Shown: piece after piece, positions 13,945-24,058 of the stretch | Layout of the letters: the number at the start of each line of letters is the position of its first letter | Numbering within the stretch: the first letter of the stretch is position 1 | Virus record (IMG/VR): IMGVR_UViG_2526164634_000030 | Span: 1 to 24,429 of that record | DNA: 24,429 bases | Strand: one strand, 5' to 3' | Origin: a virus | Lineage: Duplodnaviria; Heunggongvirae; Uroviricota; Caudoviricetes | The notes under the pieces: generated by a model | Databases searched by the model: none | What the model was told of the DNA's origin: nothing | What the model saw: only the letters and a program-made list of their open reading frames with translations | Program-made: the position numbers and the translations under genes

Positions 13945-14083
13945 ATAGAGACAAAAATATTAATCTGAAAAATATTTATTTCACGCCGTATATTTGATTG
14001 TTTAATGTGCAGGTACAATGACTTTTATTTTTTGTTGTGTATATAATCAAATATATGGTTATTTTTCACCCTGCGCATTCAGC

Positions 14084-14112
14084 GCGCAACAAAAAACCCG
14101 CCGAAGCGGGTT
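14084..14112 (-). terminator. Rho-independent terminator at the 3' end of the hok transcript
   Basis: Stem CCCGC (14097-14101) / GCGGG (14106-14110), loop CGAA; on the minus strand it is followed by TTTTTTGTTG. Confidence 0.55.
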
Positions 14113-14182
14113 AAGTGCGGGTGCGTTGAGGATGCCTGACACATCAGAGGTGGCGGGAGATTACTCTCCCGCCTAGTCACTC

Positions 14183-14338
14183 TTACTTCTCAGATTCGTA
14201 GTCCACGAAGACAGCAACCTCCGTCTGGCCGGTTCGGATTCGTACCTCGCAGAGGTCTTTCCTCGTTACCAGTGCCGTCACTATGACGGTTAAACAGATG
14301 ACGATAAGGGCGATTAACATCGCCTTTTGCTGCTTCAT
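14183..14338 (-). CDS. hok: Hok/Gef-family type I toxin (51 aa, MKQQKAMLIALIVICLTVIVTALVTRKDLCEVRIRTGQTEVAVFVDYESEK)
   Basis: Near-identical to HokD/RelF-type Hok peptides as recalled: single TM helix followed by the conserved CEVRIRTGQTEVAVF motif. The track ORF extends in frame upstream to 14395. Confidence 0.85.
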   Translation of the reverse strand: MKQQKAMLIALIVICLTVIVTALVTRKDLCEVRIRTGQTEVAVFVDYESEK

Positions 14339-14895
14339 AGCCTGCTTCTCCTTGCCTTTCGGCACGTAAGAGGCTAACCTACATTTGTGAGACATAGATT
14401 GGGCCTCAGATTAATGTTAAGCGTCTTGTAGGACGCGTAATGTTAACTGGGGCTTTTCTCTATCTGCCTTTTGGTGTTCATGCCTGAGGCAGATAGCCTC
14501 AAGCACCCGCAGCAATTCTAACTATCCAATAGATCAATGCCAACTTCTTTTCCTGCAACATCTCTCATCATAAGTGACCAAAATTCATCCAATCAGCACA
14601 AAAGAAACATTTAAAGCGTGAATGCTACCGAACGTTCATTTCAATTACATCGTTTTGATTTTTAACAGTTTTTACCTCAACAAATCAAATGGCATTAGCA
14701 TTCATCATGGAAGAAAGACTGATAAAAATGATCATTTTCAATGACTTATGATCACACCGGGTATTGCCAAGTCATTCCTTTTACGCCAGGATACCCACAA
14801 GTGAGTAGTCGAGGAGAGTTTGCCAATTTTTGCGATATAAATTTCAATGTCCGAAGAACCATTAATTGTTAATTGATTCTGTATAAGGTATTAAC

Positions 14896-15525
14896 ATGAC
14901 AATTTCATATATTCCTATTCTGAAAGCGAAACGTTCTGAGTTATCAGCTTTATCGCAGCTATCCATTGAAAAGAAATCAAAAATTTTGCCATTACTCGAA
15001 ATTGAACCAGTGCCAATTGACCCTGATTCAGGTATTGCCTTAAAGAGTTATAACGAGACTCTTATAGAGTTCGGAAAGAAAGTCTCAAAATCTTGCTCAG
15101 ATATGCAAGGTGTTTATATTGATGGATTATTAATTGAAGAGCATTTTATTTCTCCTGAAGATCATTACCCTATAATAAATGCGGTTAATCAAGTTAGAGA
15201 TATGGGGATAAGAGTTATTCCTGTCAGTTCACCAACTCGCCCATCTAACTATAAAGGAGCGATTGATGAATTAATGCAGAATGAAATATGCTTGAGATTA
15301 ACCACGTTAGATCTGGTTAACCCACAATTAATAACGCATTACATTAATCATCTGGGAATTCCTTTATCAAATATTGATATAATTATTGACTTAAGAGATG
15401 AGTTAACCGAGGATAAACTTAATTCCGGCGAACTATATACTTTGGCAATGGGATTGATAAACAATCTGGCGCACCTCAATGAATACAGAAAAGTGATTCT
15501 TTCTGGGGGTTCATTTCCTAGGTAA
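14896..15525 (+). CDS. AT-rich orphan protein of unknown function (209 aa as read; last codons and stop are supplied by the IS1 terminus)
   Basis: AAGG SD about 8 nt before the ATG; long uninterrupted ORF in a strongly AT-biased stretch; Lys/Ile/Asn/Leu-rich; ends ...ILSGGSFPR with Arg and stop read from the first bases of IS1. Confidence 0.5.
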   Translation: MTISYIPILKAKRSELSALSQLSIEKKSKILPLLEIEPVPIDPDSGIALKSYNETLIEFGKKVSKSCSDMQGVYIDGLLIEEHFISPEDHYPIINAVNQVRDMGIRVIPVSSPTRPSNYKGAIDELMQNEICLRLTTLDLVNPQLITHYINHLGIPLSNIDIIIDLRDELTEDKLNSGELYTLAMGLINNLAHLNEYRKVILSGGSFPR

Positions 15526-15535
15526 TGACTCCAAC

Positions 15536-16039
15536 TTATTGATAGTGTTTTATGTTCAGATAATGCCCGATGACTTTGTCATGCAGCTCCACCGATTTTG
15601 AGAACGACAGCGACTTCCGTCCCAGCCGTGCCAGGTGCTGCCTCAGATTCAGGTTATGCCGCTCAATTCGCTGCGTATATCGCTTGCTGATTACGTGCAG
15701 CTTTCCCTTCAGGCGGGATTCATACAGCGGCCAGCCATCCGTCATCCATATCACCACGTCAAAGGGTGACAGCAGGCTCATAAGACGCCCCAGCGTCGCC
15801 ATAGTGCGTTCACCGAATACGTGCGCAACAACCGTCTTCCGGAGCCTGTCATACGCGTAAAACAGCCAGCGCTGGCGCGATTTAGCCCCGACGTATCCCC
15901 ACTGTTCGTCCATTTCCGCGCAGACGATGACGTCACTGCCCGGCTGTATGCGCGAGGTTACCGACTGCGGCCTGAGTTTTTTAAATGGCGGAAAATCGTG
16001 TTGAGGCCAACGCCCATAATGCGGGCGGTTGCCCGGCAT
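15536..16039 (-). CDS. insB: IS1 InsB (167 aa; translated as InsAB' transposase by -1 frameshifting)
   Basis: Matches IS1 InsB as recalled (…[72 protein letters not shown]). Confidence 0.9.
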
Positions 16040-16233
16040 CCAACGCCATTCATGGCCATATCAATGATTTTCTGGTGCGTACCGGGTTGAGAAGCGGTGT
16101 AAGTGAACTGCAGTTGCCATGTTTTACGGCAGTGAGAGCAGAGATAGCGCTGATGTCCGGCGGTGCTTTTGCCGTTACGCACCACCCCGTCAGTAGCTGA
16201 ACAGGAGGGACAGCTGATAGAAACAGAAGCCAC
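15958..16233 (-). CDS. insA: IS1 InsA (91 aa)
   Basis: Matches IS1 InsA as recalled ([43 protein letters not shown]…). Confidence 0.9.
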
Positions 16234-16777
16234 TGGAGCACCTCAAAAACACCATCATACACTAAATCAGTAAGTTGGCAGCATCACCCGATTTCCGAGA
16301 AAAATTCTTGATGAGTTGTTTCTCGCTGCGATCTGATGCTGAAAGCTAAAGCAAGTAGCCAGGCTTTGTCTTTATTATCCATCGGAATACCTTATTACTG
16401 GTTGTGTGAGAACTCCAGTATACCACCGAGCCTGAAGTGGTAAAAAGACAGGCGCACAACACGAAGGCGCATTTCCGGTATTCATAAAGAGTCGGTCTTG
16501 TCTGTTAAATTTAAATGGTGGGAGTGCGCCTCCGGTTGTAAATAACGACATTGCTATGTGTAGTCTTTGGCGGCATCAGTTCTACTCCGTGGCTGCCCTG
16601 TCGCCCCTTTTTAAAGTGAATTTTGTGATGCGGTGAATGCGGCTAAGCGCACGCGGCACAGTTAAAAGCATCAGTGTTATGGGTGGATTATCCGGCGTTA
16701 ATTGTTAACTGGTTAACGTCACCTGGAGGCACCAGGCACCGCATCGACAAAATTCATTTGTAAAAATGGAGATAATT

Positions 16778-16999
16778 ATGATTGCTCATCACTTCGGAAC
16801 TGATGAAATACCACGTCAGTGTGTGACCCCTGGCGATTATGTTCTTCATGAAGGTCGGACATATATCGCCTCGGCAAACAATATTAAAAAGCGAAAACTT
16901 TATATTCGTAGCCTGACTACAAAAACATGCATTTCTGACTGCATGATTAAAGTCTTCCTCGGTCGTGATGGTTTACCTGTAAAGGCGGAGTCATGGTAA
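16778..16999 (+). CDS. kilR: KilR-like cell-division inhibitor of Rac-type prophage (73 aa from [14 protein letters not shown])
   Basis: GGAG SD before the ATG at 16778; 73-aa product matches Rac KilR as recalled; followed by ydaE with a TAATG stop/start overlap. Confidence 0.7.
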
Positions 17000-17169
17000 T
17001 GACTAAGAAAATAAAATGTGCTTATCACCTTTGCAATAAAGAAATTGAAGAAAGCAAAATCATTACAAGACCACTTCATTTCATGCGTGGAGTTATACCA
17101 ACGACGGAAATGAAAAAATATTGTAGTGAAAGTTGTGCCGAAAAAGACCAGATGGCACACGAACTTTAA
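16999..17169 (+). CDS. ydaE: YdaE-like small Cys-rich metal-binding protein (56 aa, [20 protein letters not shown]…KKYCSESCAEKDQMAHEL)
   Basis: Not in the ORF track (under 60 aa); translated by hand. Four Cys in a CxxxxC…CxxxC pattern; matches Rac YdaE as recalled; start overlaps the kilR stop. Confidence 0.7.
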   Translation: MTKKIKCAYHLCNKEIEESKIITRPLHFMRGVIPTTEMKKYCSESCAEKDQMAHEL

Positions 17170-17243
17170 TTAACTGACTATTCGAAACTGAATTTATGCC
17201 AGCAATGGCAGGGATTCGCTCAACCTTAATTAAGGAGAAAAAC

Positions 17244-17519
17244 ATGATTACCAGTTATGAAGCCACTGTTGTAACTACTGATGACATTGTTCACGAGGTT
17301 AATCTGGAAGGAAAGCGTATTGGCTACGTGATTAAAACAGAAAATAAAGAAACCCCATTCACTGTGGTTGATATCGACGGTCCATCAGGCAACGTTAAAA
17401 CACTTAACGAAGGCGTCAAAAAAATGTGCCTGGTGCATATCGGAAAGAATCTGCCCGCAGAAAAAAAAGCCGGATTTCTGGCAACTCTGATTGCAATGAA
17501 ATTAAAAGGTGAAATCTGA
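17244..17519 (+). CDS. racC: RacC-like protein (91 aa from MITSYEATVVTTDDIV)
   Basis: AAGGAGAAAAAC-ATG SD; position between ydaE and recE as in Rac; sequence matches RacC as recalled. Confidence 0.65.
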   Translation: MITSYEATVVTTDDIVHEVNLEGKRIGYVIKTENKETPFTVVDIDGPSGNVKTLNEGVKKMCLVHIGKNLPAEKKAGFLATLIAMKLKGEI

Positions 17520-17619
17520 AAGAAATAGCCTGCGTATGGCGCAGGCTATGAACAGTGTGTATCCGGCAAGATTATTCACTGAACAAACGAATTTTAATCT
17601 GAGTTGAGGTTAAAAAACA

Positions 17620-20600
17620 ATGAGCACCGATAAACAAGTTTACCCACTGTATTACGAAGCAAAAAATGACAAAGTAAGAAAACGTCTCGGTATTAAAGGC
17701 GGTTTTTACTGGGCTGAAGCGAAAAAATTATCCATTGCCATCTCCCGTGGTGCTGTTGCAATTGACGATGCTGGCTACGATGAAGATGACTTCAAAAAAC
17801 CTGTTCGCGTCAATTTGCCCATTGTTGATGACCTCCCGCCAGAAGGCGTATTTGATACGGAATTCTGCAACCGTTACGAAAAAGGCGGGGAAGATGGCAT
17901 CACAATGGTATTTATCGCGCCCTCCCCCTCTGCGCAGGGCAAACCAGCCAGCACTGACAACACCAATGTTAATGGCGAAGACATGACGGAGATTGAGGAG
18001 AATATGCTACTTCCGATTTCTGGCCAGGAGCTGCCCATTCGCTGGCTTGCTCAACACGGCAGCGAAAAACCAGTAACGCACGTTTCACGCGACGAACTCC
18101 AGGCATTACACATTGCACGGGCTGAAGAACTACCGGCTGTTACTGCCCTGGCTATTTCGCATAAAACCAGTCTGCTCGACTCGCTGGAGATTCGCGACCT
18201 CCACAAACTGGTTCGTGACACTGACAAAGTTTTCCCTAATCCTGGTAATTCAGACCTGGGACTAATAACTGCTTTTTTCGAAGCATACCTGGACGCTGAC
18301 TACACTGATCGGGGTCTGCTGACAAAAGAGTGGATGAAAGGAAATCGTGTTTCACGCATCACCCGCACGGCTTCCGGTGCTAATGCTGGCGGTGGGAACA
18401 AAACCGATCGCAATCCGAATTTAGTACACACCCTCGACACACTGGATGTGGAGATTGCAGCAGCCACACTTCCGATGGATTTTAATATTTATGAAATTCC
18501 GGGCAGCGTTTATCGTCGCGCAAAAGAAGTAGTCCTGAACAAAGAAAGTCCGTTCAAAGAATGGTCCGCAGCACTTCGTGCAACCCCGGGTATTCTGGAC
18601 TATTCCCGCGCCGCTATTTTTGCACTTATCCGAAGCGCACACCCTGAATTTTATCACTACCCGGGACGCCTTCAGGGGTATATCAACGCCTATTTGACGG
18701 AAACTGATCACGAGAACCCCAGCAAGGAAACTCTCACAGCTGCCCGGCATACGCCGGAAAAAGATATCCTGGAAGAAATTAACCGCGAGGTGGTTACTGA
18801 GCGTGAAACAGAAGAAGAAAAACCACAACCATCTGACGCAATGGCAGGTGAACAGGCAACAACTGAAACAATGGAACCGGATACAACTGAACATGGCCAG
18901 AACGCGCAGTCGCTGGATGCTCAGTCGCAGGTGAGTTCCGCTAACCAAGTAAAAGTCACCGCTGACGAAGTAAACAAAATTATGCAGGCAGCCAATATCA
19001 GCCAGCCTGACGCCGATAAGTTACTTGCTGTATCGCGTGGTGAATTTGTTGAGGGGATTAGCGACCCTAATGATCCGAAATGGGTCAAGGGGATCCAGAC
19101 TCGCGATTCTGTGAACCAGAACCAGCATGAATCGGAACGGAACGACCAAAAAGCGGAACAAAACAGCCCAAATGCGTTACAAAACGAGCCAGAAACGAAA
19201 CAATCCGAACCAGTAGCGCAACAGGAACCGGAAAAAGTCTTCACCGCCTGCGGTCAGAGCGGTGGCGGCAACTGCCCTGATTGTGGCGCGGTGATGGGCG
19301 ACGCAACATACCAGGAAACATTCGATGAAGAGAATCAGGTTGAAGTTCAGGAAAATGATCCGGAGGAAATGGAAGGTGCTGAACATCCGCACAAGGAGAA
19401 CGCTGGCAGCAATCCGCATTGCGATTGCAGTGATGAAGCTGGTGAAGCGACAGCACCTGTAGTAACTGAAATCATGTGGCCGTCATATTTCGAGCCTGGC
19501 CGCTATGAAAACCTCCCGAACGAGGTTTATCACTCCGCCAACGGAATAAGCAGCACAATGCTGAAGGATGCCCGCATCAGCCTGATGTATTACCACGGAC
19601 GGCACATTGCCGGAACTATTCTGGGCGAGGAAAGTGATGCATTGCTGCGTGGGCGGATTATTCACAGCTATGTTCTGGAAACGGATAAATTCGCTGATGA
19701 GTATGCCATTCCGGTACCGGTTCCTGAATATGTGGTTACTACTTCTAACGAACTGATCGCCATCATTAAAAAACACAATGCCAGTCTGCCAGCACTGATG
19801 ACACCAGAGCAGATGAAAGAGTGGATCGAAAGCTACAACAGCACTCTTATACAGCCACTGTCGGTAAGTGCCGGGGCCGAAGAAACAGGCATCCTTTACG
19901 GTTCGCTTCCGGAGGAATTCCGGCGTATTCCTGAGGGGGAAAAACACACAGCATCAGCAATGAAAGCCTGTATTAAAGAATACAACGCAAGCCTCCCTCC
20001 TCTGCTGAAAGCCAGTGGAACACGGGAGCAGCTCCTGGAGCAAATTGAAACTGTAGATCCAGAACTGGCAAAAAAAGAACGTGCTAAATCTTTGCCTTAC
20101 AACATCAGTGGCACAAAAGAGCAATTAACCGAAATCGCCCGGAAAATTCGCCCGGAACTGGTGACACTGGAGGACTGGCAAAAATGCCAGCAAGAAGAAA
20201 ACGCCGGGAAAACGTTTATCAGTCCGGATATGTATGAACAGGCAAAAAATATTCACGCAGCACTGCAAAACAATACTGATGCAGCAAGGCTACTCAACCA
20301 CCCGGATCGCAAATCTGAAATCAGCTATTTCGGGTTTGATGAAGAAACCGGGCTGGAAATCAGGGTCCGTCCTGATATCGAAATCCGGCTGCCATACGAA
20401 AGCATTTGCGCCGACGTGAAGTCAGTCAGCCTCGGTTATGTGCGACAGGAACGACTGAAAGATCGCCTGCACCGTGAAATTATTGAGCGTGATTATCACC
20501 TCAGCGCAGCAATGTATTGCGATGTGGCAAACCTGGACAAATTTTTCTGGATCTTCGTCAACAAAGATGCTGGCTATCACTGGGTGGCCGTCGTGGAAGC

Positions 20601-20763
20601 CTCGCAGGAACTCCTGGAACTTGGTCGACAGGAATATCGCCGGACGCTACGACAGATAAACGAAGCTCTGGAGACAAACAACTGGCCAGCACCGATTACC
20701 GAAAGTTATACCGACGAATTAAACGACTTTGATCTTCGTCGTCTTGAAGCACTGAGCATCTGA
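17620..20763 (+). CDS. recE: Exonuclease VIII (RecE)-like 5'-3' dsDNA exonuclease, 1047 aa
   Basis: Long blocks match Rac RecE as recalled (…NTNVNGEDMTEIEENMLLPISGQELPIRWLAQHGSEKPVTHVSRD…, …ASRGEFVEGISDPNDPKWVKGIQTRD…); acidic low-complexity middle; C-terminal nuclease domain; followed by an annealing-protein gene. Confidence 0.75.
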   Translation: MSTDKQVYPLYYEAKNDKVRKRLGIKGGFYWAEAKKLSIAISRGAVAIDDAGYDEDDFKKPVRVNLPIVDDLPPEGVFDTEFCNRYEKGGEDGITMVFIAPSPSAQGKPASTDNTNVNGEDMTEIEENMLLPISGQELPIRWLAQHGSEKPVTHVSRDELQALHIARAEELPAVTALAISHKTSLLDSLEIRDLHKLVRDTDKVFPNPGNSDLGLITAFFEAYLDADYTDRGLLTKEWMKGNRVSRITRTASGANAGGGNKTDRNPNLVHTLDTLDVEIAAATLPMDFNIYEIPGSVYRRAKEVVLNKESPFKEWSAALRATPGILDYSRAAIFALIRSAHPEFYHYPGRLQGYINAYLTETDHENPSKETLTAARHTPEKDILEEINREVVTERETEEEKPQPSDAMAGEQATTETMEPDTTEHGQNAQSLDAQSQVSSANQVKVTADEVNKIMQAANISQPDADKLLAVSRGEFVEGISDPNDPKWVKGIQTRDSVNQNQHESERNDQKAEQNSPNALQNEPETKQSEPVAQQEPEKVFTACGQSGGGNCPDCGAVMGDATYQETFDEENQVEVQENDPEEMEGAEHPHKENAGSNPHCDCSDEAGEATAPVVTEIMWPSYFEPGRYENLPNEVYHSANGISSTMLKDARISLMYYHGRHIAGTILGEESDALLRGRIIHSYVLETDKFADEYAIPVPVPEYVVTTSNELIAIIKKHNASLPALMTPEQMKEWIESYNSTLIQPLSVSAGAEETGILYGSLPEEFRRIPEGEKHTASAMKACIKEYNASLPPLLKASGTREQLLEQIETVDPELAKKERAKSLPYNISGTKEQLTEIARKIRPELVTLEDWQKCQQEENAGKTFISPDMYEQAKNIHAALQNNTDAARLLNHPDRKSEISYFGFDEETGLEIRVRPDIEIRLPYESICADVKSVSLGYVRQERLKDRLHREIIERDYHLSAAMYCDVANLDKFFWIFVNKDAGYHWVAVVEASQELLELGRQEYRRTLRQINEALETNNWPAPITESYTDELNDFDLRRLEALSI

Positions 20764-20774
20764 GGAAGGACACA

Positions 20775-21827
20775 ATGAACGAATTAACTCAACAAGAAAA
20801 TATTAACTCTAATGTTGCGGTTTTCAGCCCTCAGTCCCTGGCTGCAATTCAGACATTTTCCCAGGTAATGGCTTCCGGCATGGCTACTGTACCGGAACAC
20901 CTCCGGGGAAATCCATCAGACTGCATGGCCATCACCATGCAGGCGATGCAGTGGCAAATGAACCCTTACGCAGTAGCTCAGAAAACTTTCGTTGTGAATG
21001 GTGTGCTCGGATATGAAGCGCAACTGGTTAATGCCGTAATCAGTACTCGTGGGCCGCTAACCGGGCGTATTGAATATGACTGGTTCGGGCCGTGGGAAAA
21101 AATTATCGGGAAATTTGAAATTAGGAAGAACGACAAGGGGAAAGAATATCGTGTACCTGGCTGGAAGCTGGCCGATGAAAACGGGATCGGAGTTCGCGTC
21201 CAGGCAACACTACGCGGAGAGAGCAAGCCACGCGTACTGGAGTTACTTCTGGCGCAGGCCAGAACACGTAACTCAACGTTATGGGCCGATGATCCTCGCC
21301 AGCAGCTTGCCTATCTGGCACTGAAACGCTGGGCGCGCCTTTATTGCCCTGAAGTGATTCTTGGAGTGTACACCCGGGACGAACTGGACGAACCACAGGA
21401 AAAAATCATTAATCCGGTTCAGGAACATAAAAATACATCCGCCTGCCGTGCGGAACGTGAAACAACAATTATTGAGCAGGATGCCGGGGAAAACTGGATC
21501 AGTGCTTTCCGTGAACGTATTGAGCAGGCACAAAGCACCGGAGAAACAACATCACTTCGCCAGGAAGTGGAAGATCATAAAAATACTCTTGGCGCTCTCT
21601 ACACAGAACTTAAAGGAAAAGTGGTTCAGCGTCATCACCGTCTCAATGCTATTGCCCGTATTGAGACGATGATAAATGACCTGCCTTCATCAGGTGATCC
21701 AGAAGCAGAACAAAAATTTATTGCTCTGGAAAATACGCTGAATGCTGCACGACCACATCTGGGAGAATTATATGAGGCGTATAAAACGACACTGACAGAT
21801 ATGAAACCAGAATATATCGGCTCCTGA
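20775..21827 (+). CDS. Single-strand annealing protein (RecT/Redbeta-superfamily-like), 350 aa, partner of the RecE-like exonuclease
   Basis: Position immediately downstream of recE with an 11-nt gap; central segment (…GVLGYEAQLVNAVISTRGPLTGRIEYDWFG…) has a RecT-like pattern, but the protein does not match K-12 RecT as I recall it and is about 80 aa longer. Confidence 0.5.
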   Translation: MNELTQQENINSNVAVFSPQSLAAIQTFSQVMASGMATVPEHLRGNPSDCMAITMQAMQWQMNPYAVAQKTFVVNGVLGYEAQLVNAVISTRGPLTGRIEYDWFGPWEKIIGKFEIRKNDKGKEYRVPGWKLADENGIGVRVQATLRGESKPRVLELLLAQARTRNSTLWADDPRQQLAYLALKRWARLYCPEVILGVYTRDELDEPQEKIINPVQEHKNTSACRAERETTIIEQDAGENWISAFRERIEQAQSTGETTSLRQEVEDHKNTLGALYTELKGKVVQRHHRLNAIARIETMINDLPSSGDPEAEQKFIALENTLNAARPHLGELYEAYKTTLTDMKPEYIGS

Positions 21828-21890
21828 TATTTACTATGGCGGTGTAGCCTCACCGCCATAACAAAACTTTATTTTATGAGAGAAAAGACA

Positions 21891-22085
21891 ATGCGGTATG
21901 AAAAAGTCAAACCATGTCCGTTTTGTGGTTGTCCATCAGTAACGGTGAAAGCCATTTCAGGATATTACCGCGCAAAGTGTAACGGATGCGAATCCCGAAC
22001 CGGCTATAGTGGAAGTGAAAAAGAAGCACTCGAAAGATGGAATAAACGAACTACTGGAAATAATAATGGAGGTGTTCATGTATAA
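21891..22085 (+). CDS. ralR: RalR/Lar restriction-alleviation protein (64 aa from MRYEKVKPCPFCGCPSV)
   Basis: Near-identical to Rac Lar/RalR as recalled, including the CPFCGC…CNGC Cys cluster and the C-terminal WNKRTTGNNNGGVHV. Confidence 0.8.
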   Translation: MRYEKVKPCPFCGCPSVTVKAISGYYRAKCNGCESRTGYSGSEKEALERWNKRTTGNNNGGVHV

Positions 22086-22266
22086 AATTACTGCCACTAT
22101 TGAAAAGGAAGGTGGCACTCCTACTAACTGGACAAGATATTCAAAATCTAAATTAACGAAATCAGAATGCGAAAAAATGCTCTCAGGGAAAAAAGAAGCA
22201 GGCGTTTCCAGAGAGCAGAAAGTAAAGCTGATAAATTTTAATTGCGAGAAACTTCTGTCCTCGTGA
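22078..22266 (+). CDS. ydaC: YdaC-like small protein (62 aa from MYKITATIEKEGG)
   Basis: GGAGG SD 5 nt before the ATG, which overlaps the ralR stop; position matches Rac gene order. Start could alternatively be 22066. Confidence 0.5.
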   Translation: MYKITATIEKEGGTPTNWTRYSKSKLTKSECEKMLSGKKEAGVSREQKVKLINFNCEKLLSS

Positions 22267-22366
22267 GTTGCATTATATACAAATTAGAACTTCATAGCTG
22301 ATTATTAAAAATCAACCACATCCGCCAGTATTCTGTATATTTACTGGCGGTCATATCGTAAGAGGT

Positions 22367-23760: not shown

Positions 23761-23827
23761 AGAAATTCGAGTAAATTTCGGGGAATTTCGGGGAGACGTT
23801 TACAACTGATTGATTTTAAATACAATT

Positions 23828-23929
23828 AAAAAAGACCGAATACGATTCCTGTATTCGGTCCAGGGAAATGGCTCTTGGGAGAGAGCCGTGCGCTAAAAGT
23901 TGGCATTAATGCAGGCTTAGTTGCCTTGC
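23828..23929 (-). ncRNA. sdsR: SdsR (RyeB) small regulatory RNA
   Basis: The reverse complement reads GCAAGGCAACTAAGCCTGCATTAATGCCAACTTTTAGCGCACGGCTCTCTCCCAAGAGCCATTTCCCTGGACCGAATACAGGAATCGTATTCGGTCTTTTTT, matching the SdsR sequence as I recall it, including the terminal hairpin and U-tract. Confidence 0.7.
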
Positions 23930-24058
23930 CCTTTAAGAATAGATGACGACGCCAGGTTTTCCAGTTTGCGTGCAAAATGGTCAATAAAAAGCGTGGTGGT
24001 CATCAGCTGAAATGTTAAAAACCGCCCGTTCTGGTGAAAGAACTGAGGCGGTTTTTTT
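23831..24058 (+). ncRNA. ryeA: RyeA (SraC)-like antisense sRNA overlapping sdsR (boundaries approximate)
   Basis: Inferred: a promoter-like TTTACA-N16-TACAAT at about 23797-23824 on the plus strand, full antisense overlap of sdsR, and a bidirectional terminator at 24016-24058. Ends not verifiable without transcript data. Confidence 0.4.
24016..24058. terminator. Bidirectional rho-independent terminator between ryeA and yebY
   Basis: AAAAACCGCC…GGCGGTTTTTTT inverted repeat with an internal GTTCT…AGAAC sub-stem; A/T-runs on both sides. Confidence 0.45.

Follow-up and report, generated by a model that had tools for sequence, protein, structure and literature searches.

A stretch of 24,429 nucleotides (hereafter the window; positions 1 to 24,429 of IMG/VR virus record IMGVR_UViG_2526164634_000030) carries on its minus strand a short reading frame for which RefSeq gives the label Hok/Gef family protein and whose close relatives are named hokD. 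The question raised by this locus is whether the reading frame belongs to a complete type I toxin-antitoxin system or is what remains of one and, if the system is complete, what it does for the prophage in which it lies. A preliminary description had read the region as a hok/sok-type type I locus within a prophage, and this core reading held at every point at which it could be tested. Judged by its sequence, the region 14090-14545 (minus strand) is a complete hok/mok/sok type I toxin-antitoxin locus. The best explanation, to which we give a probability of about 0.85, is that it is a functional-looking module and an allele of hokW/mokW/sokW. The predicted promoters, transcripts and reading frames are as follows.

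14515-14543, minus strand: hok/mok promoter, -35 TTGGCA (14543-14538), 17-nt spacer, -10 TAGAAT (14520-14515)
14090-14508, minus strand: predicted full-length hok mRNA, ~419 nt, from the conserved 5' end to the terminator
14183-14395, minus strand: mok reading frame, 70 codons, in frame with hok; Shine-Dalgarno GAGG (14407-14404), AUG at 14395
14183-14338, minus strand: hok toxin gene, 51 aa; Shine-Dalgarno GGAG (14351-14348)
14352-14380, plus strand: sok promoter, -35 TTGCCT (14352-14357), 17-nt spacer, -10 TAACCT (14375-14380); convergent and inside mok
14387-14457, plus strand: Sok antisense RNA placed by homology, predicted ~71 nt, with a 14-nt single-stranded 5' tail, a long hairpin and a U-rich 3' end
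14089-14112, minus strand: intrinsic terminator, AACCCGC UUCG GCGGGUU and a U run (stem 14112-14095, 7 pairs)

Identity and Limits of the Locus

The Rfam model RF01794, named 'sok', matches 14508-14333 (minus strand) with 121.7 bits (gathering score 59), and all 157 model positions are matched. The match is to the minus strand and stops at the hok start codon; what the model describes is therefore the leader of the hok mRNA, and Sok is its complement. Alignment with known loci had been proposed as a check on the preliminary description; when the window is aligned with R1-type hok/sok, hokB, hokC and hokD, all conserved blocks, the -10 box and the 3' element included, are found in it. The limits of the module were taken from 127 related loci gathered from species genomes and from viral contigs, with 84 distinct sequences aligned using MAFFT. 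In most of the related loci homology sets in with the hok -10 box (14520, reference position 26), and the homology of the more divergent loci stops at 14119, which is the end of the fbi element. The bounds first proposed for the locus, 14084-14520, fall at the terminator on one side and at the hok -10 box on the other. Two plus-strand ORFs (14018-14176 and 14283-14369) are unsupported as genes and fall within conserved RNA elements.

Over the 651 bases that surround the locus, two complete E. coli genomes match the window at 100%, and sequence related to the locus is present in 4,720 of 5,426 complete genomes of E. coli. Among phage records, the module shares ~94% identity with hokW/mokW/sokW of the Shiga-toxin phage 933W and of VT2-Sakai (Sakai prophage Sp5) and ~93% with an annotated mok/hok pair of phage Rac-SA53.

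The Hok Toxin and the mok Reading Frame

The 51-aa product (14183-14338, minus strand) scores 81.1 bits against the Pfam family HOK_GEF (PF01848; cutoff 22, E = 4.3e-23), which agrees with the complete Hok-family ORF of the preliminary description. It is identical to HokW of 933W/Sp5 at 51 of 51 residues and to HokD of K-12 at 47 of 51. HokW is toxic, and sokW transcribed from its own promoter counteracts this toxicity (Takada et al. 2021, PMC8621323).

The in-frame extension of hok upstream to 14395 had been regarded as probably not the translated product. This view stands insofar as the 51-aa Hok remains the toxin, but the extension is not spurious and corresponds to mok. An in-frame layout of 70 and 51 aa is common to the window, mokW/hokW and mokC/hokC, and the Shine-Dalgarno sequence GAGG lies 8 nt upstream of the mok start. 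An ATG homologous to that of mok occurs in 83 of the 84 aligned loci, 56-58 nt 5' of the hok ATG; in one relative (L074) it is replaced by ACG. Within these 83 loci mok is in frame with hok in 62; its frame is +1 in 12 and +2 in 9, and in these last nine it comprises 19 codons and overlaps hok at its end through ATGA. Since the mok ATG is kept at 56-58 nt in any of the three frames, what is conserved is an upstream translated frame and not a long protein. The pattern fits translational coupling, and the mok frame would be the actual target of Sok. The expectation that mok of R1 is out of frame with hok did not hold, as an R1-type plasmid sequence has mok in frame at 57 nt.

Alternatively, the 70-aa in-frame ORF (14183-14395) could itself be the toxin and the 51-aa product an annotation artefact. 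The longer frame is open, has its Shine-Dalgarno sequence and is in frame with hok in 62 of 83 loci, but the upstream ORF lies in another frame in the other 21 relatives, no part of the locus varies more than codons 2-4 of the extension, and the Pfam domain begins at residue 25 of the long form. In addition, HokW from its own ATG is toxic (primer YO-357, section 2.1, PMC8621323), and we consider the 70-aa toxin very improbable.

The hok Promoter and the Terminator

In a promoter scan the hok promoter is sigma-70-like, with matches to 10 of the 12 consensus positions. Transcription would start at G14508, which lies 7 nt past the -10 box and matches the conserved 5' end of the mRNA. The -35 box is not part of the conserved module, and 933W has a different one. 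At the other end of the transcript, the terminator hairpin of the preliminary description was recovered with its 7 pairs and T run, and it is the sole terminator-like site in 13950-14650. This terminator is common to hokD of K-12 and strain DEC5E and is absent from 933W and Rac-SA53.

The Predicted Sok Antisense RNA and Its Putative Promoter

The preliminary description expected Sok to be encoded on the plus strand at about 14340-14470. Homology bears this out and puts the predicted Sok at 14387-14457 and its putative promoter at 14352-14380, with the annotated sokW (71 nt, starting 8 nt inside mokW) and sokC used as guides. The predicted RNA is identical to sokW at 63 of 71 positions and folds with -29.2 kcal/mol (z = -5.4). 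The sequence of its single-stranded 5' tail complements that of the mok start codon and the surrounding loop.

The sok promoter was located by its homology to sokW and by a published mutation. In the 'pro-less' mutant of sokW (primer YO-421, TAGGTTA to CCGGCTC on the mRNA strand) antitoxin activity is lost (PMC8621323), and the -10 box mutated in it has the same sequence as window 14375-14380. The sok promoter of the window thus has the sequence found in sokW, and from mRNA position 126 onward the identity with hokW of 933W is complete in this region. The complement of the -35 box, GCAA (mRNA 154-157, for TTGC), is invariant in the 84 loci, as are two complements of the -10 box, A129 (for the last T) and T133 (for the A), while A134 (for the first T) is nearly invariant. 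A generic promoter scan did not list the sok promoter, the box TAACCT being too weak with 3 of 6 consensus positions.

In the fold of the first 140 nt of the mRNA, a hairpin (14408-14371) forms at the mok start with CUCA in its loop, and its inner stem is 78% paired across the loci (helix 5). A YUNR (U-turn) tetramer in this loop is too short a motif to serve as a strong criterion; it is expected by chance in about one loop in five and is, by our reading, absent in some alleles.

Predicted Folding of the hok mRNA

The elements found within the mRNA are given below. The names ucb and dcb follow the R1 literature.

14497-14508, minus strand: tac element, the 5'-terminal GGGUGCUUGAGG, identified from the folds
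14480-14506, minus strand: metastable 5' hairpin of the nascent transcript, mRNA 3-13 / 19-29, identified by folding
14460-14496, minus strand: inverted repeat stem CUAUCUGCCU (14496-14487) / AGGCAGAUAG (14469-14460) with a variable loop, mRNA helix 13-22/40-49
14366-14376, minus strand: upstream box (ucb-like) UAGCCUCUUAC, pairs with GUAAGAGUGACUA at the hok stop codon (14186-14174)
14174-14186, minus strand: downstream box (dcb-like), overlaps the hok stop codon; MFE helix 133-143 / 323-335
14152-14173, minus strand: 3'-UTR hairpin GGCGGGAGA / UCUCCCGCC, 95-96% paired across the loci, 5 pairs changed on both sides (helices 15-16)
14119-14131, minus strand: fbi (fold-back inhibition) element CCUCAACGCACCC, pairs with tac

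The full-length mRNA has a minimum free energy of -167 kcal/mol (z = -8.4 against shuffled sequences), and its 5' end is closed onto its 3' end in both the MFE and the centroid fold. In both folds tac and fbi form 12 pairs which involve the first 12 nt of the mRNA, and the same regions contain a perfect 9-nt long-range inverted repeat (14116-14124 / 14503-14511). In the full-length fold the mok start pairs with 14143-14132, and the hok Shine-Dalgarno sequence and AUG pair with 14216-14198, which buries both start regions in long-range helices. The core of the upstream box, GCCUCUUAC, is almost invariant in the 84 loci.

The tac element has three alternative partners: fbi, its partner in the 5' hairpin, and AAGCCCC (14454-14448). 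Folding of the leader, which had been suggested as a check, yielded both a metastable and an activated structure as alternative pairings of the same 5' nucleotides. The metastable 5' hairpin appears in folds of the first 30-50 nt and reappears once fbi is removed, and the 140-nt leader folds in the manner of the Rfam model with the mok start in a hairpin loop. A 10-bp inverted repeat that the preliminary description placed in the leader is real, but its coordinates were one base off, the two arms being CTATCTGCCT at 14460-14469 and AGGCAGATAG at 14487-14496. This repeat is not a product of chance, since it is 94.6% paired in the 84 loci and 4 of its pairs have changed on both sides; in one of its column pairs (15/64) the counts are AU:48 GC:18 UA:8 GU:7.

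The three mutually exclusive pairings of the 5' end are each conserved with compensatory changes in the 84 loci. As the structures were derived from the window sequence, they are favoured in a control in which the pairing partners are slid, a bias from which the double-sided changes are independent, and with this in mind the metastable 5' hairpin is 97.4% paired against 28-49% when slid (4 pairs changed on both sides), the tac-fbi helix has 93.8% of cells paired against 40-62% (with double changes from U-A to C-G in 12 sequences), the activated leader is 89.8% paired against 32-47% (13 pairs changed on both sides), and for the rest of the full-length fold the figures are 88% and 35-45%, with 35 pairs altered on both sides. 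Position 4 of tac (U/C) shows 12 double changes with its partner in fbi and 12 with its partner in the 5' hairpin. For Photorhabdus loci, which are without the bulged C, the MAFFT alignment puts part of the outer half of the tac-fbi helix (pairs 7-12) out of register, and the 8-12 'not paired' cells in several tac-fbi columns are therefore due in part to the alignment and not to structure.

Proposed Mechanism

Transcription from the promoter at 14543-14515 would yield the ~419-nt mRNA closed by the tac-fbi helix. Based on studies of R1 hok/sok and hokW/sokW, this closed full-length mRNA is likely to be stable and translationally inert. Slow trimming from the 3' end would then remove fbi and allow the 5' end to refold, and the switch to the 5' hairpin seen when the mRNA is folded without fbi is consistent with this step. 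By analogy with the same systems, refolding would expose the mok start, where short-lived Sok would bind and block translation of mok, and the duplex would be cut by RNase III. If synthesis of Sok stopped, possibly upon a shut-off of transcription, loss of the DNA or induction of the prophage, the stored mRNA could be translated. Ribosomes on mok would open the hok start, and the 51-aa Hok would insert in the inner membrane and collapse it. In the hokW/sokW system, RNase III and Hfq contribute, and HokW locates to the inner membrane (PMC8621323).

Comparison with Known hok Loci

The closest characterised locus is hokW/mokW/sokW of 933W/Sp5, which is like the window in its 70-codon in-frame mok, sok promoter, tac and fbi. 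The Sok hairpins of the window and of sokW both carry an extra 18-19 nt relative to hokC. Sok of the window differs from sokW at 8 of 71 positions, six of which fall in the 5' recognition tail, so that residues 2-4 of Mok are SHK instead of LNT. The flanks differ as well, as the window has the -35 box TTGGCA and an intrinsic terminator after fbi, both of which are missing from 933W. The locus of the window lies in an accessory region of a Rac-like prophage, with replication genes on one side and nin/Q-type genes downstream, whereas that of 933W is near the right end of the phage genome.

The homology to hokD (relF) of the K-12 Qin prophage extends over ~14352-14092, which comprises the hok ORF, the 3'-UTR hairpin, fbi and the terminator. 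In K-12 relE is found immediately upstream of hokD, and tac, the mok start and the Sok-encoding leader are absent. The hokC (gef)/mokC/sokC locus of K-12 resembles the window in that mok is in frame, Sok starts 8 nt inside mok and the leader can be aligned throughout. It is ~75% identical to the window and differs in its shorter Sok hairpin (sokC is 59 nt) and in having IS186 20 bp past the stop codon, with the conserved 3' end and its fbi absent. The hok/sok (parB) locus of R1/IncF plasmids aligns with the window in tac, the inverted-repeat stem (with compensatory changes), the Sok hairpin, the mok ATG, the sok -35 and -10 boxes, the hok Shine-Dalgarno sequence and fbi. It differs in being plasmid-borne, in its proven post-segregational killing and in a longer loop of the first stem; the Hok identity is ~44% according to the figure quoted in PMC8621323.

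Prophage Context

The window is a Rac-like lambdoid prophage of E. coli with recE/recT, kilR, ralR/RalA, an integrase and lambda-type lysis and head genes. On one side of hok lies a gene for a 'beta family protein' and on the other, downstream, are DUF1367/DUF1364/DUF1133 (nin/Q-type) genes, an arrangement also found in Rac-SA53. In intact relatives, the locus has a 'beta family protein' / 'sce7726 family' pair as its neighbours, in the accessory region that separates the replication genes from the nin-type genes. An IS1 element at 15521-16288 replaces 6.3 kb that are present in strain FDAARGOS_1059 (L001, 16022-22317). The segment missing relative to that strain includes the 3' part of the beta-family gene, the sce7726-family gene, the replication genes, ydaT and both HTH regulators, and because this IS1-linked loss took away the immunity and replication region, the prophage is defective.

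Role of the Locus and Alternative Explanations

Most probably the defective Rac-like prophage retains the module as a selfish stabiliser and as a kill switch that responds to transcription arrest, and this is the least certain step of the argument. To our knowledge, a stabilising or kill-switch role of chromosomal or prophage hok loci has never been demonstrated. A defence or addiction function, as suggested in the preliminary description, is plausible by analogy. We rank the role of selfish stabiliser and transcription-arrest switch first and regard abortive infection and help in lysis as alternatives that do not exclude it or each other; a relic is unlikely.

That the locus is an inactive relic, intact in appearance but not expressed or not toxic, deserves consideration because the hok/sok loci of K-12 are stated to be inactive (PMC1635323). 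In K-12, hokD keeps only its ORF and 3' end and IS elements adjoin hokA, hokC and hokE; an IS1 is likewise found ~1 kb from the locus of the window, and the relative with ACG in place of the mok ATG demonstrates that decay occurs. Yet none of the disabling lesions known from the K-12 loci is found here, as every element lost in them is present (both promoters, tac, the mok Shine-Dalgarno sequence and ATG, the Sok hairpin, ucb/dcb, fbi and the terminator). Moreover, Hok is identical to the experimentally toxic HokW and the IS1 stops at 15521, 978 bp beyond the hok -35 box, all of which makes a relic improbable.

The other alternatives accept the locus as intact and concern what it was selected for. 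In abortive infection, a phage would shut down host transcription, Sok would decay and Hok would kill the cell before phage progeny mature. The idea draws on the exclusion of T4 by R1 hok/sok on a high-copy plasmid, for which a decrease in plating efficiency of 42% and in plaque size of ~85% is quoted in PMC8621323 (see also PMC10305079), and on the 'beta family protein' / 'sce7726 family' neighbours of the locus in intact relatives. As quoted there, however, the effect of R1 on T4 is weak and dependent on copy number, and the mechanism is the same as that of the functional module preferred here, from which abortive infection differs in selected role and not in the identity of the locus. We think it unlikely that this is the selected role. 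Direct experiments on the hokW/sokW family point to help in lysis at prophage induction and not to phage exclusion (PMC8621323). In Sp5, mitomycin C causes sokW RNA to disappear while hokW mRNA stays stable (half-lives were not measured there), production of HokW, a toxin identical to that of the window, is RecA-dependent, and deletion of hokW-sokW lowers the amount of released phage two-fold with no growth phenotype in the absence of induction (PMC8621323). The module could therefore help its own prophage as in Sp5, with induction removing Sok and Hok damaging the membrane before holin and endolysin act. The prophage of the window, however, is without HTH regulators, ydaT and replication genes, and since this control and replication region has been lost, normal induction, phage production and a lysis-assisting role are unlikely in this copy. 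The locus also occupies a different place in the phage genome than it does in 933W, and help in lysis seems somewhat less likely still than abortive infection.

Variation of the Sok 5' Tail

Among 45 close relatives, the target of the Sok 5' tail (mRNA 107-122, window 14402-14387) has a nucleotide diversity of 0.357, compared with 0.042 for the hok coding sequence and 0.03 for fbi. The segment comprising the tail and the mok start (mRNA 106-128) occurs as 45 distinct alleles in the 84 loci, and variants of the tail include those of the window Sok, sokW and a CCAATTTC-type Sok. Co-resident copies whose hok sequences (150-156 nt) show 0-2 differences carry 6-7 differences among 17-19 tail positions, and the tails differ in all 17 within-genome pairs; these pairs were taken from genomes other than the two that are 100% identical to the window. 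The unpaired loop of the first stem is as diverse as the target of the Sok tail.

It is possible, though we would put it at somewhat less than even odds, that the Sok 5' tail and the mok start loop are a specificity determinant under diversifying selection which insulates co-resident prophage copies from one another, the window representing one discrete 'immunity' allele. Alternatively, the diversity of the tail could reflect relaxed constraint and drift, as a cis-antisense pair stays complementary whatever mutates, or it could result from mosaic recombination, also in combination with drift.

Significance

The locus is real but ordinary. Its allele family was already known, having been annotated in the 933W record (AF125520) and characterised in 2021, and nothing in substance is new, as the hok/sok paradigm is unchanged. 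The value of the analysis for annotation is that mok, Sok and all of the RNA elements are now placed in a locus that RefSeq labels only as 'Hok/Gef family protein', and that the window provides the complete form of the locus that is truncated in K-12 as hokD. If selection for orthogonality among Sok tails is real, it would account for how E. coli can live with up to ten related hok copies per genome, and it would predict which prophages cross-neutralise each other's toxin.

Hok mRNA, Sok strand and mok spacing

Although Rfam calls family RF01794 'sok antitoxin', the match to it in the window (14333-14508) is on the minus strand, that of the hok mRNA, and the model extends from the mRNA 5' end to the hok AUG. 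Since RF01794 covers the hok mRNA strand, the Sok gene lies on the strand opposite to the hit. In an alignment of 84 distinct hok loci, the mok ATG precedes the hok ATG by 56, 57 or 58 nt, and for this reason mok is in frame with hok (62 loci), shifted by +1 (12 loci) or shifted by +2 (9 loci). In the +2 loci, mok is a 19-codon ORF which ends in an ATGA overlap with the start of hok.

Compared with window 14092-14352, hokD of the K-12 Qin prophage has a breakpoint just ahead of the Shine-Dalgarno sequence of hok. Beyond it in the 5' direction, K-12 has relE in place of the whole 5' part (the mRNA 5' end with tac, the mok start and the Sok gene), whereas the 3' fold-back element that pairs with tac (fbi) and the terminator are retained as in the window.

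This E. coli-type hok also occurs, at 91-100% protein identity, on two short contigs (L022 and L030; 275-431 bp) whose species labels are Acinetobacter idrijaensis and Xanthomonas pisi. At the DNA level it is matched with 95.7% identity by search hit H31, a record under the name 'Actinobacillus phage vB_Apl-pPE4'. All three likely reflect contamination or misassignment.

The hok-carrying prophage

Features of the window outside hok are as follows.

15521-16288, complete IS1 (768 bp)
16555-16606, DicF sRNA match (55.3 bits vs 48), about 270 bp past the IS1 end
22084-22262, RalA antitoxin RNA (Rfam, 223.8 bits)
23824-23967, overlapping SraC/RyeA and SdsR/RyeB sRNA genes

IS1 stands in place of 6.3 kb found in E. 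coli FDAARGOS_1059 (16022-22317 of the fetched locus), and it cuts the gene for a 'beta family protein', leaving a 209-aa ORF (14896-15525) that is probably the 'orphan gene' of the preliminary description. Lost with the 6.3-kb segment were an sce7726-family gene, the replication genes, ydaT and both HTH regulators; the prophage is therefore defective. The RalA RNA is adjoined by ralR, and together they are a second type I toxin-antitoxin system of this prophage. The SraC/RyeA and SdsR/RyeB genes are located ~200 bp past the end of the matched integrase stretch (the fetched locus breaks off within the integrase gene), and this bidirectional sRNA locus, or a position beside it, appears to be where the prophage is integrated.

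Variation in the Sok recognition tail

The single-stranded recognition end of Sok was compared over fetched loci L011-L137.

14387-14402, Sok 5' tail, corresponding to mok codons 1-3 and upstream

Among 45 close relatives the tail is hypervariable, with a nucleotide diversity of 0.357 vs 0.042 for hok. Co-resident hok copies with almost the same coding sequence have differing tails, for example in Shigella flexneri (L017/L019) and in Photorhabdus cinerea (L041/L044). The recognition tail of Sok may be a specificity determinant.
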